Source of the DNA: Amoebidium appalachense
Taxonomy: Eukaryota; Protista; Ichthyosporea
Length of the DNA: 64,000 nucleotides
Direction: 5' to 3'
Assembly: GCA_963693365.1 (NCBI GenBank)
Contig: CAVNZM010000011.1
Coordinates: forward strand, 8,545,937 to 8,609,936
Shown here: positions 35,501-53,500 of the stretch, one piece after another
How the letters are laid out: each line of letters starts with the position of its first letter
Position numbering within the stretch: the stretch's first letter is position 1
Notes under the pieces: model-generated
What the model was told of the DNA's origin: nothing
Database searches by the model: none
The model's input: the letters and a program-made list of their open reading frames with translations, nothing else
Position numbers and translations under genes: made by a program

Positions 35501-38500
35501 GACTGCGCCCGCGTCAGCGGCCAGTGTGCGGCTGTATACCGGATCTACAAGATCAAAGTATTGAAGATTCTCTATGGGGTGGCAAGGAAGTAAATAGTCT
35601 CGATCGAAATTGACCAATAGCAGCTCGCTAAAAACAAGGCATCTGCCGGGCTTCGGCCACCTGCCTAAACGACCCACGTTGGTAAGTGATAGGGTAAATC
35701 GATGAATAAGATGGAAAAAATAAATAAAAATCACACAGAATAAACTATCATTACATATACGCATAAAATTCTACGACAAAACGCTCTTTTTAGCTAGCGA
35801 CGCTCACGGTAGCGATCCGGCCTCAACAATCGTGATGTCCATTGTCCAGAAATTTTGATTGGCTCACAGCCTTTCAATTTGAATTGCTACACTTTCTACC
35901 AATCGGATAGCTCGAAACACAAGGCAAGATATTTTGATCCAGCCTGTTCAATGTCTTGCTACCCCATAGCAAATCTCTCAATGATTGGCCCAGGAGATCT
36001 AGATCTAGATCCTCTGCTGCTGGCGTCAGACTATGATGATCAGCGCCTGCCCGGACGTCCGTGCCTGAGCGGCGGAGCTCCGAGCGCGTCTGTGCACGTG
36101 GCACCGTCACGGAGTACTACACTGAGTAGCCTACGCGCTTGCGTGCGCCGGGTGCGCGTACGTGTGTCATGTGGATGTATACATGTACGTGGCGACTCAG
36201 GCTGACTCAGGCATGGCATGCCTATTTGTAAAATTTTAGGCCTGTGCCGTTTGGCGGGTATGCATGCATGGGTGACTCAGCGGCTTGGGCAAGACTTCAC
36301 AATCAGCTGCAGTGTCAATGAGTTGCATGAATACTAACCTTTCATGGTTAAGTGTATGTGTGTTTGTGCGTTTGTGTTTGTGCACATGTATGCATGGTGC
36401 GTGCAAGTGTACATGACGTGCGCGTGCTTATGATGTGTATGTGAACGTTCATGCGTTATGCCACTGTTTACAGGTGTTTGTGCGCGTGTGTGTGCGTGCC
36501 AAAGGCTTCAGACCTGTAAGGCGTGCCCCCTGGCCAGAACCAGAATCGGCTAGTCAAACTATAAAACTAAATTAAGGGAGTTGGAACCATGGCGTTGCTT
36601 CGATCGGTCTCCGGGCCAAACTCATATGAAAGGGTTACATCGAGAGTGAAAAGGTAGCCGAATTATGCGCTAGAGCCATAATTTTTGCATGGTAGTTATG
36701 AAAATAGTGTTTTCTCCGAACGTTCAGTACAGAAAAATTATAAGTAAATTGGTTCAGCTTTGGCGACGAAAAAAACCAACGCGCTAAATCTGGTACGTTT
36801 TATTAGTACTAAAACGTACCAGATTTGGTGCAGTTGGTTTTTCGGTCACTGACGCTGAACCAATTGAGTTATATTTTTTCTGTACTGAACGTTTGAAGAA
36901 AACACTATTTTCATAATTATCATGCAACAATTATGACTCTAGTGCATAATTCGGCTACCTTTCCACTCTCGATGTAACCCTGTTTTTCATATGAATTTGG
37001 CCCGGAGACCGATCGCCGCAATTCCATGGTTTCATCCTCGTTAATTTCTAACTATTGGATTTTAAAGTTAGGGCATCGATGCCGATCGAACTTTAAGTTC
37101 GTTTGTCTTCTCGTGGAAGAGACATTTCAGCGCATACAAAGCCCATTCATACGTAAACGGTAGGAGACAGGATAGAAATGGGGGGTGGATATGGGGGGGG
37201 GGGGAGGGTTGAATACGAAATACGGCACGAACTACGCATACACGACGAGAAGCATGGTGCAGGACACATGCAAAAGCAAACATTCAAGTATGCAACATCA
37301 GCAATGCACACAGTATGCACTGGAGGGGGGGGGGGGGGGGGGGGGGGGGGGGCTGCTCACGATAAAATCTGGCTCTGACATTCCCCAACCATAGTAGTGG
37401 TAGTCACCGGCCTTATTGAGAGAGGCAACACTCCCTGTGTGTGTGTGTGTGTGTGTGTGTGTGTGTGTGTGTGTGTGTGTGTGTGTGTGTGTGTGTGTGT
37501 GTGTGTGCGCGCGCGCCGTGCATGTGATAGCACGAATATGAAGGAGAGAGAAAAGGGAGCGGGGGGAAGGGGGGGGGGGAGGGGGAGACGGAGGGGGACG
37601 TTTAGGTTGAGGTGGGGTGAACAGGGGTAGAACAGTGGGAAAGACAGAAGCGGAGGGAGGTGGAGGGACGTGGAGGGAAGGGGGGGGGGGGGGGGGGGGG
37701 GGGGAGGGGGATGCGTGAGAGGGTTGGAAACATGGGGCCAAAGGGATAGAAGAACAACCTCAGGTGAAGGGGGAGCAGAGAGAGGGGGGGGGGGAGGGGG
37801 GGGGGGGGGGGGGGGGATGCATGTGGTAGAGGGTTGAAGGTATGGAGGGGGAAAAACGTCACAAAAACGAAAAACCCGATATCGATCACAAGATAGAATA
37901 CATAAAGAACGTGCAGGCATAAGGCCACTCGAACAGAACCCATCATCAGAAGGGCTCCTACACCTCCACCAAAGAATCAGTTTCGATTCTTTAACCTCTT
38001 GCGCACGGGGAACAGAGTTCCGGACAAGGGATGGTGGTGTTGATGGGTAATTGGAAAGGGTAAGGATGTGATAGTGGTGGTGGTCGACCTGGCCTTGGCT
38101 TGTGCTCTGTTTCCAAAAACTCGATGTACATTGTTTTGTTTCGGCTAGGCTACTAAAAATAAGTACTACCATAAATGGTAGTCAGTATAGTCCTGAAAAA
38201 CGAGGACTCCCAACACACAGCTCCTTGTCTGATATGACGTCATACAACCACACTCACCCACCACCAACTCTAGACTAGCAGTCCGTTTTTTTTTTCTTTT
38301 TCTTTTTTTTTTTTTTTTTTTGGGGGGGGGGGGGGGGGGGGGGGGGGGGGGGGGGGGGGGGGGGGGGGAGGGGCCCATTGCACGCGAACTTTCAATTGGT
38401 GGAAATGAAATTTGCAGTATGAAAGCAAAAGAGCCCCTGTTTGACTGTGATAAACGAACACAACTATGATCATCCCCATCACCACTTCCCCTCCCCCTGT

Positions 38501-50500: not shown

Positions 50501-53500
50501 ATCCTAAACATCCCACCCACCTTTCTCTCGTCCCTAAATCCTGCCAGGCCCGTCGCCCACAAAAACCCCATCAGGCCGATGCCCTCCGGATCCCCCTGGG
50601 CCTCCAGTCGTTGGATATACGAATGTGCAAGGGTGATGTCGTAAGATATGCCGGGATACGATTCTCCAAACTGCCCAAAAAAAAAATAATAATAAATAAA
50701 TAAATAAAAAGGAAAAGATTAGATAGAGTTCAGATATCCCGATTTTACACTGGTCGTGTGTGCATTTGAGGAAAGGAATGTGCTAATCTTACGCCAATGT
50801 GCAAGAGTGTTGTCCAGGGGTGGACCGAAATACGGCTCTCCAACCTGGAAAAACAAACAATAGGAAGGAATAGGCTATATAGGCTTCAAATTTCCCGAAA
50901 TTTGAACCGGTTTTTTGTGCAGCTCAGGACTGGTTTGTCACGTTTCATTTATATCACTCGTAACGTTTTTTAGTGCCGAGTTGTCCTTATTGGTGTGTTA
51001 CTATCACTGCCATTATGCCTCTCCCTTCCCCCCCCCCCGCACCCCTCTCCCCCCCCCCCCCCCCTCTCTCTCCCCTCTCCCTCTCCCCTCTCCTTCCCCC
51101 TCCTCCTCCCCCTCCCCCTCCCCCCCTCCCCCCACCCCCCCCCCCCCCTCTCTCTCTCTCTCTCTCTCTCTCTCTCTCTCTTTTTCGGGGGGGGGGGGAG
51201 GGGGGAACGTGAGGGGGTGGGGGGGGGGGGGGGGGGGGGGGGGAAGGGGGGGGGGGGGAAGGAAGGGGGAGGAGGGGGATTGTGTCTATGTAATCGAAAA
51301 TTACAGATATGAAACAAGAAGGGGATATAAAAAGAAAGAAAGAAAGAAAGAAAGAGCATGCTTTTTATTATTATTATTTTATTTTTATTTTTATTTTTAT
51401 TATTTTTATTATTTTATTTTTTATTTTATTTTTTATTTTATTATTTTTTATTTATTTTTTTTTGGGGGGGGGGGGGGGGGGGGGGGGGGGCACCCATACA
51501 AGATAGGCATTTGCGAGATAGGTGGTGGCATCCCCATTACCAAGATCGGCTGCCTCCTTCATCCGTTGGAGCCCCTGAAAAATTGAAATTTGGATTAATG
51601 TTTTCAGTAATGTGCCAAATTTTGGGTTTACTTAGGGTAGGGTGACTATGGGAAAACGATTCATACCATGTTTTAGAAGCCAGCAATCTAAAAACACAAA
51701 CACACCATGTGCACCGCAGGGAGGGAGGGGGAGGAGGGGGACGGGGGAGGGAGGGGGGTTTATGGAGGAGGAGACATGGAAGTGGCCAAACACAAGATTA
51801 CAAAAAATCAAAAGGAACCCCCCCCCCCCCCCCCCCCCCCCCCCCCCCCTCCTTCCCCCCCTCCCCTCCTTTCTGGATGATGCCTGGGGATGTTTTGTTT
51901 AAGTGTCTCTTATCTGCACTTTTGTTCATGTCTCCTTGTTTCGTTTCCTACTTTCTTATCTTTCCTCTTCTTTTTTGTGTGTGTATATCTTTTTTGTTTT
52001 GTTTTGTTTTTGTTTTTGTTTTTGTTTTTCTTTTTTTTTTGTTTTTTAGTGGGGGAGGATAGGGGGGGGGGGGAGGGGGAGGGCATACCTGTGGTCTATC
52101 TGACTCTTCTTTGCTGTAGAGAAACTCAACAGCTTCGTCGTAAAGAAATTCACCCTTTTCTATGGAGGGATGGGTGGAAAATATTTAGGGGGGAGATGTG
52201 AGTGTGTGTGTGTGTGGGGGGGGGGGGGGGGGGGGGGGGAGGAGGAGGGGAAGGGGGGGGGGGGGGGGGGGGGGGGAAAGGCCACCCAGGAAAGGGAGGG
52301 AGGGTATGTGTGTGTGTGTGGGGGGGGGGGGGGGGGGGGGGGGGGGGGGGGGGAAGAAGTATGCATTAGAGAGTCGGAAGGTAGGGGGTGCTCATATCAA
52401 AAGGCAAAACATCAAACGTCATAAAGTCAGCAAAAAGGTACAAAAGCCAAAAGCCAAAAAAAAAAAAAAAAGAAAAGAAAAAGAAAAGAAAAGAAAAAAG
52501 TGTGCAGGGAAGAGACAGTTGAACAAGGGTGTTGGCGGGGGGGGGGGGGGGGGGGGGGGGGGAGGGGGGGGGGGGGGAGGGGAGGGGGGTTTGAATGCGG
52601 AACACGGTACGAATACGCATACACGATGAGAAGCATGGTGCAGGACACAGGCAAAGGCAAACATTCAAGTATGCAACATCAGCCATGCGCACAGTATGCG
52701 TCATAAGCAGAGCCCATCCTCAGGGAGGGCCCAAGTCATCAATTGCGTCTGAGTTTCGACCCCTTAGCCCGCGTATATACGACGCTCCAACTCAGACAGC
52801 AGCATCAACTGAACTTGGGTGGGTCAACCCGTCTTGGGGAGGGGGGGGGGGGGGGGGGGGGGGGGATACACGCATGCCAATGTCGCCAACCTGGTGTGTG
52901 CCTGCGGGTGGGCGAACGCGCACGCGCGTGTGTGTGTGTGTGTGTGTGGGTTGTGTGTGTGTGTGTGTGTGTGTGTGTGTGTGTGTGTGTGTGTGTGTGT
53001 GTGTGTGTGTGTGTGTGTGTGTGTGTGTGTGTGTGTGTGTGTGTGTGTGTGTGTGTGTGTGTGTGTGTGTGTGTGTGTGTGTGTGTGTGTATGTGTGTGT
53101 GTGTGTGTGCCTGCGTGGTGTGAGCATGCATGTGTGTGATTATGTATCTCTCCCCTCTTTCCCTCACCTCTCCCCTCTTTCCTCACCTCTCCCCTCTTTC
53201 CTTCCCTCTCTCTCTCCTTCTCCCCCGGGCACAAATACAAATAAACCCCGCAAAAGTGTGCGTGTGACTTTGGACTGTCACTTACTTATTAGACATGTAC
53301 ACAATCACAAGATAATTACGCAATATAACAAATGGAAAAAGATACCACACGACACCAGACCCGATGAAAGCATACACCTTGAAAAACTAAGCCTTATGTC
53401 TCGTTTTATATATAATGACCGCCTTAACCATATTGCCAAATATGGCACTCGCAGATGTGTAACACCTAAATACATATTACCTTCCTGTAGAATTGGTCTT

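Follow-up and report, generated by a model that had tools for sequence, protein, structure and literature searches.

A candidate permuted hammerhead ribozyme with a proposed separate-strand stem II in dispersed, probably Penelope-like repeats of Amoebidium appalachense

Dispersed repeats in the window (the whole 64,000-nucleotide stretch of Amoebidium appalachense DNA analysed here) are, in our judgement, likely to be non-autonomous Naiad-type Penelope-like retroelements, of which one family (family A) is predicted to form a four-strand hammerhead, in the order stem II strand, block S, block G and block C, that cuts after a GUU triplet. A preliminary description of this DNA had set the S-G-C order apart from the established hammerhead types as a non-circular one; the order itself is not new, because type SGC had been reported earlier, with cleavage demonstrated (Eckert et al. 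2023, PMC10085705, in the parts of that paper available to us). In the proposed fold, stem II of family A is supplied by a separate upstream strand. As far as the same parts of PMC10085705 show, nearly all non-circular hammerheads come from environmental RNA whose hosts are unknown, and those who discovered them took CUGANGA to be inseparable from stem II. If the present reading is true, a high-copy genomic family with a separate-strand stem II would add a permutation beyond the six thought possible and supply studies of covariation and structure with many natural variants. The seeming lack, in Naiads, of the ribozyme carried by other Penelope-like elements would also be explained, and the part that the hammerhead plays in Penelope transposition could be tested throughout the group; the descriptors used in surveys of retrozymes and viroid-like RNAs would miss such motifs.

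Five repeat copies keep UC-GAAA-C followed by CUGANGA on the minus strand, with a spacing of 30-31 nt between GAAA and CUGANGA; the preliminary description had reported these five cores, and all lie where it placed them. A complete S-G-C hammerhead core is found in three of the five (42.8, 46.5 and 52.7 kb; family A). Since the 42.8 and 46.5 kb copies are 96% identical, these amount to only two independent full-core variants, A1 and A2. The family A copies and their strands are:

42728..42996, minus strand: family A1 repeat with complete permuted hammerhead, 269 nt, flanked on both sides by poly(C)
42961..42967, minus strand: helix IVa 5' strand, 7/7 Watson-Crick with 42814-42820, closing the whole motif; pair probability 0.88; a variant at 42813 adds one pair
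42957-42959, minus strand: helix IVb 5' strand, partner 42824-42826, after A9-U
42934-42954, minus strand: hairpin V, 7 bp, directly before G10.1; Naiad passages, read by eye, have a hairpin in the same place
42927..42932, minus strand: proposed stem II 5' strand (P1 of the preliminary description), G10.1 at 42932, 6 Watson-Crick bp with 42870-42875
42920..42926, minus strand: P2 5' strand, partner 42842-42848; proposed to link stems II and I at their outer ends
42894..42910, minus strand: block S, with stem III 5' strand (42898-42910), GUU triplet and stem I strand (42894-42896)
42854..42875, minus strand: block G, with stem II 3' strand, GAAA (42866-42869) and stem III 3' strand
42828..42837, minus strand: block C, with stem I strand (42835-42837) and CUGAGGA (42828-42834)
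46462..46730, minus strand: second A1 copy, 269 nt, 5' and 3' ends as in 42728..42996; core with H17 at 46630, GAAA at 46599-46602 and CUGAGGA at 46562-46568
52590..52836, minus strand: family A2 copy with complete core, 5' truncation inside hairpin V; stem II 52821-52825/52758-52762, H17 52789, GAAA 52754-52757, CUGAGGA 52717-52723
52737..52808, minus strand: A2 kink-turn consensus between the extension of stem III and P2, as read by eye

In all three family A copies the descriptor finds the core positions C3-A9, G12-A15.1, U16.1 and H17, with the stems adjoining the core (I 3-4 bp, II 5-6 bp, III 9-13 bp); copy by copy, stem III comes to 13, 11 and 8-9 bp and stem I to 3, 3 and 4 bp. The stems named in the preliminary description all pair as claimed, and the GUU triplet puts H17 at 42897 and the predicted scissile bond between 42897 and 42896, where it had been expected. 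The GUU triplet, listed there as a caveat, is ordinary, and so is a U after A9. The descriptor allowed all six block orders and was set after the copies had been seen; in the window it matches at three loci, each in S-G-C order and on the minus strand, against no SGC locus in 60 dinucleotide shuffles and, whatever the block order, 0.07 loci per shuffled window. The conclusion that the core stands in a non-circular order and needs a pseudoknotted fold was right, as was the expectation that standard models miss it, Rfam giving only a partial Hammerhead_1 match (E 1.6) that places its stem II at the proposed upstream strand 42927..42932. The pseudoknot-free folding energy is not unusual (z = -0.95 on the minus and -1.03 on the plus strand), and the corresponding ensemble gives stems I and II zero weight with a program that cannot form pseudoknots. 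A competing hairpin of -9.5 kcal/mol closes CUGAGGA, and the 3-bp stem I of A1 sits in a C-run of variable length. The zero weight, the hairpin and the short stem I count against the preferred explanation.

Between the 42.8 and 52.7 kb copies the core is identical at 14/14 positions and the other columns at 92/133 (69%; Fisher p = 0.008, one pair). Compensatory changes, invoked in the preliminary description, do occur, three-row pair counting giving 100% of cells paired and two two-sided changes in 18 pairs, but within the window alone they are not significant because 44/500 shuffles reach the observed value.

Two partners compete for the strand before GAAA, P1 upstream (6, 6 and 5 Watson-Crick bp in the complete copies) and the strand after CUGANGA downstream (4, 4, 6, 6 and 6 bp in the five copies). 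The upstream stem II is the stronger in all three complete copies (upstream versus downstream, -6.7 vs -2.2 and -8.5 vs -5.1 kcal/mol) and has a pair that is U-A in A1 but C-G in A2. The two letters of this pair also change in run X2 (4.2% and 4.1% of depth) and in run X20 (depths 1419 and 1430); this double change probably belongs to the same subfamily and is no independent event. An exact 6-bp partner within the upstream 60 nt arises in 1.6% of shuffles and an exact 5-bp partner within 36 nt in 5.6%. P2 (6-8 bp) has changed on both sides at one pair and on a single side at another, and a frequent variant at 42925 converts its U-G to C-G. P1 carries the compensatory change and, judged by eye, is the sole possible stem II in several Naiad elements of the same layout. 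Of the downstream stem II drawn in the preliminary description, what stands is its fit to the truncated family B copies, whereas in the three complete copies it is probably not the working stem. The two pairings listed there as extras can both be drawn as stated, and they are probably the real fold, with P1 as stem II and P2 as the bridge.

In the proposed fold, the strand before GAAA would pair with the upstream GACC strand as stem II, and P2 would tie the outer end of stem II to that of stem I, doing the job of the 'I' helix in type-SGC ribozymes. With stem II formed by the upstream strand and P2 spanning stems I and II, the break in the core would fall between A9 and G10.1, a gap that helix IV and hairpin V may plug. 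Hammerheads join A9 to G10.1 directly or through 1-2 nt, and single-base insertions between them are tolerated; here the two are 2 nt apart if the downstream stem II is used, whereas helices IV and V intervene in the preferred fold. The topology would be the 'reversed circle' of SGC and CSG opened at a fourth place. An internal loop would join stem III and P2 and fold P2 back beside the core; in A2 this loop matches the kink-turn consensus, with a 3-nt bulge (52741-52743), tandem G.A / A.G (52740/52805, 52739/52806) and a U.U, while the corresponding loop of A1, a 2x2 variant, departs from it.

The remaining copies and fragments, together with the host gene, are:

43590..43773, minus strand: family B copy with block G, block C and what is left of stem I
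37815..38003, minus strand: family B copy, 82% like the 43.7 kb copy across the core
46151..46333, minus strand: decayed family B copy, both boxes mutated
34392..34468, minus strand: decayed, truncated family B copy
43512..43552, minus strand: fragment with block C from a third subfamily, which retains the bridging helix with a different sequence
15193..15215, minus strand: block C fragment, C3 changed, with short tail and then poly(C)
33034..33137, minus strand: tail-only A2 copy, illustrating 5' truncation with fixed 3' end
37209-37318: A2 tail
21007-21111 and 15887-16009: B tails
32540..56251, minus strand: host gene, SEL1L/Hrd3-like Sel1-repeat protein, ~20 exons

Family B is likely to be related to plain SGC, the strand on the 5' side of the cut having been lost from its copies. 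At 43590..43773, stem II and the bridging helix are both completed by downstream strands, and the 37.9 kb copy shows a compensatory C-G to U-A change in its downstream stem II; in this family the UGG after A9 pairs with the UC before GAAA, a compensatory change being present. This matches type SGC (PMC10085705, available parts), which takes both helices from strands 3' of CUGANGA, but without the III'-UH strand: neither a stem III partner nor UH is present in the two copies, U16.1 and H17 are missing, and no cleavage-site strand occurs within 400 nt of either. All the repeats are dispersed in many copies with ragged 5' ends, and the 3' end is fixed and adjoins poly(C) in 10/10 copies whose 3' end was examined. 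No tandem of one repeat family was found within the window, and no head-to-tail joint among the contig joints listed.

The fixed 3' end, 5' truncation and microsatellite insertion are those of Naiad and Chlamys Penelope-like elements, which likewise target microsatellites and include 5'-truncated and non-autonomous copies (Craig et al. 2021, PMC8557442, available parts); the signature and the (C)n targets match Penelope-like elements with an N-terminal endonuclease. In the same parts, Naiads have animal hosts and prefer (TA)n, Chlamys targets (C)n and (CA)n, and Naiads are reported without canonical hammerheads, 'half cores' 35-50 nt apart being flagged in them. We parsed passages from among the 54 Naiad consensus sequences of the supplement by eye, not by computation. 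Eight passages near 3' ends show the family A strand order with a 6-bp upstream stem II, and eight more (parts 13-16, mostly nematode by file order) read as CSG. The permuted motif was not seen in the Chlamys passages of the available parts. A poly(C) target is typical of Chlamys, yet the fold is seen only in Naiads, which counts against our preferred explanation. Naiad and Chlamys elements are recognised by a reading frame with N-terminal GIY-YIG, CxC linker and RT, or by 3' identity with such an element; the scan of 163 window frames (overlapping sets) found no Penelope reverse transcriptase or GIY-YIG frame, and the window repeats have no sequence link to an autonomous element or coding partner.

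According to the available parts of PMC10085705, type SGC (HRIMA-1 and SGC variants) was found in metatranscriptomes and in no genome of a known organism, type CSG comprises two soil-DNA sequences, and both cleave at 0.004-0.13 per min. Family A shares with SGC the S, G, C order, the full core, the U after A9, a helix that connects stems I and II at their outer ends and a short strand linking stem III to that helix; the conserved UGG after A9 can alternatively pair, as it does in HRIMA-1, with the UC in front of GAAA, a point against the preferred fold. In SGC, however, the strands that complete stem II and the bridging helix follow CUGAUGA, whereas both best partners in family A lie upstream, and family A inserts helix IV and hairpin V at A9/G10.1 and has G as N7. 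The stem I to stem II (S-G) linker is 18 nt in A1 and 21 nt in A2, outside the ~3 nt of SGC (0-8 in its descriptor); the family B remnant has ~4 nt. Naiad passages, too, have ~3 nt, and the long linker counts against the preferred explanation. CSG has the same reversed circular block order opened elsewhere, but its block C is intact and comes first. In the pseudoknotted (PK) hammerhead the role of helix II is likewise rebuilt by a pseudoknot plus an extra helix, but A9 stays linked to G10.1-C11.1 and its helix IV is unrelated to that of family A (PMC11300833, available parts). Canonical type I hammerheads of Penelope-like elements and non-LTR retrozymes resemble the window repeats as terminal-repeat hammerheads or short non-coding derivatives of such elements, with a size class of 170-400 nt (PMC4209133; bioRxiv 10.64898/2026.07.22.740005; available parts of both). 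They are circular permutations, often dimeric and in tandem arrays, whereas the window repeats are non-circular, solo and dispersed in sense introns, with no CGS-order descriptor match in the window.

A rather unlikely alternative is a plain type-SGC ribozyme as originally drawn, with stem II after CUGANGA-U and P1 as an off-switch that forms first during transcription and quiets intronic copies. All five copies allow a downstream stem II of 4-6 bp, which shows covariation between those at 37.9 and 43.7 kb, HRIMA-1 likewise has U then GG (PMC10085705, available parts), natural stems II of 1-2 bp occur with pseudoknot help, and the three intact cores are found in introns of an expressed gene, in sense orientation. 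The family A downstream helix, however, is half G-U, 3-4 kcal/mol weaker than P1 and unchanged in its letters between A1 and A2; the strand before stem I' has its partner upstream (P2), not downstream as in SGC; and, by eye, a downstream stem II is impossible in five Naiad passages (three Acropora entries, one part-12 and one part-19 entry of PMC8557442, available parts), where the base after CUGAUGA cannot pair with C11.1. Slightly less probable still is a relic, a fold inherited from an active Naiad-like ancestor in copies that no longer cut and spread passively, their structure serving only as a handle for the reverse transcriptase. The cleavage strand is missing in 2/5 copies, the boxes are broken in four more, several consist of the tail alone, and in family A copies both sides of the cut are still present; moreover, 8/9 Xenopus retrozyme dimers failed to cut in vitro and metazoan Penelope-like hammerheads are often weak. 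Against decay stand the core identity between A1 and A2 and the fact that, among the contigs compared, GAAA and GUU have no variant of at least 3%, with one minor C3 change and few variants overall.

Quite improbable is a trans or dimer ribozyme, in which stem III and P2 make up one straight rod, so that block C and the upstream strand are kept away from their own core and instead complete that of a second molecule or tandem unit. The two helices can stack as a ~25-bp rod in the lowest-energy fold and many Penelope-like hammerheads act as dimers, but there is no palindromic loop III, the A2 hinge fits the kink-turn consensus, the window lacks tandem copies, and SGC and CSG ribozymes with equally short links cut as monomers (PMC10085705, available parts). 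If the upstream P1 strand serves as stem II, the dimer that the preliminary description had considered is not needed. That the boxes are no ribozyme at all, but belong to an ordinary SINE as a tRNA-derived B box/T loop or as the boxes of a C/D snoRNA, with stems by chance, we hold to be highly improbable. TCGAAAC does resemble a T loop and UGAUGA a C box, Rfam gives weak C/D matches (E 2.7 and 8.9), and exact two-box matches occur by chance in large collections (52 loci); however, three copies have all three hammerhead stems in register with the core, against 0/60 shuffles in S-G-C order. A tRNA-derived SINE was rejected for want of a tRNA-like head, ARAGORN finding 0 tRNA genes and the two bases before TCGAAAC varying, unlike in a B box. 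By eye, no clear A box is seen in family A, and its hairpin V contains one B-box-like 9-mer.

All five cores lie in sense orientation within introns of the SEL1L/Hrd3-like gene, which is expressed. For the preferred four-strand hammerhead, slow self-cleavage of read-through or head-to-tail transcripts would yield unit-length RNA that may serve a Penelope-like reverse transcriptase, priming at poly(C)/poly(G) tracts; slow hammerheads in introns permit splicing, and slow cutting here would be tolerated. More speculatively, Penelope-like elements with an N-terminal endonuclease might share an ancient reversed-circle hammerhead with lineage-specific opening. Here it would take the four-strand form in a probably non-animal host, its A9/G10.1 break plugged by two extra helices acting as a switch that keeps it quiet in sense introns and lets it act in tandem or circular RNA, and family B would be retrocopies of a 3' cleavage product; we regard this as possible but doubtful.

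The five cores of the preliminary description are confirmed on the minus strand at 37.9, 42.8, 43.7, 46.5 and 52.7 kb, with the described spacing of 30-31 nt, in intron-rich eukaryotic DNA that is also rich in poly(C) and (CA)n. They fall into two families. Family A holds the complete copies, two of which (A1; 42.8 and 46.5 kb) are 96% alike and both span 269 nt with common 5' and 3' ends; the third (A2; 52.7 kb) is 77% alike. The family B copies at 43.7 and 37.9 kb are 82% alike. Further copies of the repeats are located as follows.

46.3, 43.5, 34.4, 15.2 and 61.7 kb: decayed or partial copies
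15.9, 21.0, 33.0 and 37.2 kb: tail-only copies

To describe the strand order, we distinguish the blocks S (5' strand of stem III, GUU/UH, stem I), G (3' strand of stem II, GAAA, stem III) and C (stem I, CUGANGA). A descriptor for all six block orders, tuned after the copies had been seen, finds three loci in the window, each of the order S-G-C and each a family A copy, while 60 dinucleotide shuffles yield 0.07 loci per window of any order and none of type SGC. Between A1 and A2 the core is identical at 14 of 14 positions, compared to 92 of 133 elsewhere. Folding z-scores of the repeats are uninformative. Local Rfam scans return a partial Hammerhead_1 match (E 1.6) and weak C/D matches, and for the whole window low-complexity matches alone appear among the 150 of 189 matches listed. 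A two-box pattern retrieved 2 viral and 50 metagenome loci; as none of these 52 shows BLAST similarity to the copies in the window or carries poly(C) tracts, they were rejected as chance matches. We conclude that the family A motif is a real hammerhead-derived motif, for which self-cleavage is predicted between 42897 and 42896 in the 42.8 kb copy and between 52789 and 52788 in A2.

The reversed box order that had been proposed is thus present as S-G-C, but it is already known as type SGC (Eckert et al. 2023, PMC10085705). According to the parts of that publication used here, five SGC and two CSG examples cleave at the predicted bond with 0.004-0.13 per min, and their sources are metatranscriptomes or soil DNA, with one doubtful GCS case at most from a known genome. 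In one example, HRIMA-1, a U follows CUGAUGA and a helix connects stem I to stem II at their outer ends. The authors assume no more than 1-2 nt between CUGANGA and stem II. Their search descriptors demand CUGAUGA, a stem I of at least 4 bp and no more than 8 nt between blocks S and G (PMC10085705). Because of these three requirements family A would lie outside their reach, in line with the earlier suggestion that the motif escapes standard descriptors.

For the strand preceding GAAA in family A there are two candidate partners, namely a downstream strand, originally taken as stem II, and an upstream strand (P1), originally listed as an extra pairing. In A1 the downstream helix comprises 4 bp (-2.2 kcal/mol), and in A2 it has 6 bp including three G-U pairs (-5.1 kcal/mol), whereas P1 provides 6 and 5 Watson-Crick pairs, respectively (-6.7 and -8.5 kcal/mol). 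In the 42.8 kb copy P1 joins 42927-42932 to 42870-42875. P1 begins with G10.1-C11.1, and Rfam places stem II of Hammerhead_1 on P1. From A1 to A2 a U-A pair of P1 is replaced by C-G, with both letters varying at equal frequency in the aligned contigs. The downstream stem II is weaker than P1 in family A. The second extra pairing, P2, follows directly after P1, and 2-4 nt separate the end of its partner from the strand of stem I that comes next. Hence, P2 would bridge stems II and I at their outer ends and do the same job as the "I" helix of type SGC. Two additional helices are proposed between A9 and G10.1: hairpin V (7 bp), upstream of P1, and helix IV, in which a 7-bp strand upstream of P1 pairs with the sequence after CUGAGGA (probability 0.88). 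P1, P2, hairpin V and helix IV are mutually compatible. The resulting four-strand fold would correspond to an SGC ribozyme that was closed into a circle and then opened between A9 and G10.1. By eye, the loop that separates stem III from P2 in A2 conforms to a k-turn, which would bend P2 back onto the core; the A1 loop fits less well. Against the four-strand fold count the A1 stem I of 3 bp and a competing hairpin that encloses CUGAGGA. Covariation over three rows is not significant, being matched by 44 of 500 shuffles. Family A probably represents a ribozyme of known class that is wired in a new way, with predicted activity.

Family B resembles plain SGC, with both stem II and the bridging helix formed from downstream strands. 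Stem II has 6 bp and shows a C-G to U-A change between the 43.7 and 37.9 kb copies. The bridging helix is long, with -13 to -22 kcal/mol across five copies and fragments, and is kept with wholly different sequence in one of these five. A UH strand with both stems was not found within 400 nt, so the copies, as present, are incapable of self-cleavage in cis; readings of family B as type II (GSC) or GCS are ruled out, there being no UH strand with stem I. Three family B copies have a common start (43771-43775, 38000-38004 and 46331-46335), namely the two letters GC, placed just ahead of the base with which the 3' side of the predicted cut should begin. At this start UH would be expected in place of the GC; of 215 poly(C) runs, 16 have GC next to them on the 3' side. 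Family B may thus have arisen by retrocopying of a 3' product of cleavage. The upstream sequence of the 43.7 kb copy was not recovered from aligned contigs, and none aligned from the coded sequencing runs X17 and X18. A contig of 2389 nt from run X9, which like run X20 may be of RNA, matches family B in block C and continues into approximately 2.2 kb of other sequence upstream, making it a candidate longer or autonomous partner.

In the sections of Craig et al. 2021 (PMC8557442) used here, the Penelope-like elements (PLEs) Naiad and Chlamys are described as having no canonical hammerheads, Chlamys targets (C)n and (CA)n, and eight Naiads are flagged for half cores 35-50 nt apart. A short-motif search of the supplement, with passages parsed by eye, gives counts that are lower bounds, as motifs split by line breaks are missed. 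The family A layout occurs in at least eight Naiad passages (Naiad_Amil, Aacu, Anas, Obim and Ovul by adjacent headers, and unnamed ones in parts 8, 12 and 19), each with a hairpin, the upstream stem II strand, P2, block S, a link, block G, P2' and block C in this order. Their upstream stem II has 6 bp (one mismatch in Aacu) and their S-G link 1-5 nt. In five of the eight the base after CUGAUGA is, by eye, unable to pair with C11.1, and stem II there can thus only be the upstream strand. At least eight further passages in parts 13-16, including Naiad-1, -2 and -3_Nbra by headers, read as clean type CSG, and one of them has GUU as its triplet; this brings the by-eye total to at least 16 passages for 54 Naiad entries. 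Chlamys passages among the matches listed hold type I motifs only. In the supplement alignment of PMC10085705, both published CSG ribozymes, which derive from soil DNA, are arranged like the Naiad passages of nematodes; these two ribozymes may be Naiad ends. Naiad 3' ends in the hemichordate region (PMC8557442 supplement, parts 25-26) have another conserved structured motif in common, which by eye resembles an HDV-like ribozyme. In the open-access literature we found no report of a link between permuted hammerheads and PLEs or of a core opened at A9/G10.1. With family A, the range of the Naiad-type motif probably extends to a host outside the animals.

Poly(C) borders the 3' end in 10 of the 10 copies whose 3' end was inspected, and 5' ends are variable. 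Judged from sequence, fixed 3' ends on poly(C) combined with varying 5' ends are typical of retrocopies made by target priming. The A1 copy is matched by 4944 contigs of run X2, a depth not equal to copy number, and the repeat family is thus abundant; at least half of the A1 repeat's words are present in 20 runs (8 coded organisms, 7 studies). Most likely, the repeats are short elements that depend on a Naiad-type partner for their mobility. On the model of PLE hammerheads and retrozymes, read-through or tandem transcripts would be cleaved slowly to yield RNA of unit length, and priming of its reverse transcription at poly(C)/poly(G) tracts would account for 3' ends that are fixed and 5' ends that are ragged. 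Copies retaining both sides of the cut would then stem from uncut, tandem or re-ligated templates. All five cores are intronic and in sense orientation in a SEL1L/Hrd3-like gene (32540-56251) with a protein recorded from a transcriptome. Slow intronic hammerheads are compatible with splicing, whereas fast ribozymes block it, and the occurrence of three intact cores within a single expressed gene fits this picture. The introns of this gene often have poly(C) right after the donor and (CA)n right before the acceptor on the sense strand. On the plus strand, runs of at least 15 comprise 94 G-runs and 29 C-runs, tracking gene direction. The repeats share the sense of their genes, including the sole plus-strand fragment (approximately 61707-61740), which lies in a plus-strand gene.

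The scanned frames of the window include no partner ORF. The window contains the following other elements and genes.

1300-6400, minus strand: near-intact DIRS/Ngaro-like tyrosine-recombinase retrotransposon with a gag-like frame and an RT frame
12560-20228, minus strand, and 60299-63070, plus strand: exons of several LCIB/LCIC-type beta carbonic anhydrase genes
27604-30173, minus strand: alternative oxidase (AOX) gene of four exons, matching transcriptome protein P0005

The RT frame at 2786-4522 (Pfam RVT_1) was considered as a Penelope partner and rejected, as it is part of the DIRS/Ngaro-like element. The frame after it looks like a recombinase and is without a Pfam match. The element carries split direct repeats (approximately 6050-6440 and 1270-1600) and is inserted in a decayed LINE-like RT (497-1087, plus strand). 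The LCIB/LCIC-type family is best known from algae, but a green algal host finds no support in the relatives of the AOX, and a non-animal, opisthokont-like host is more likely. The AOX is closest to proteins of a chytrid (55%) and a sea anemone (59-66%).
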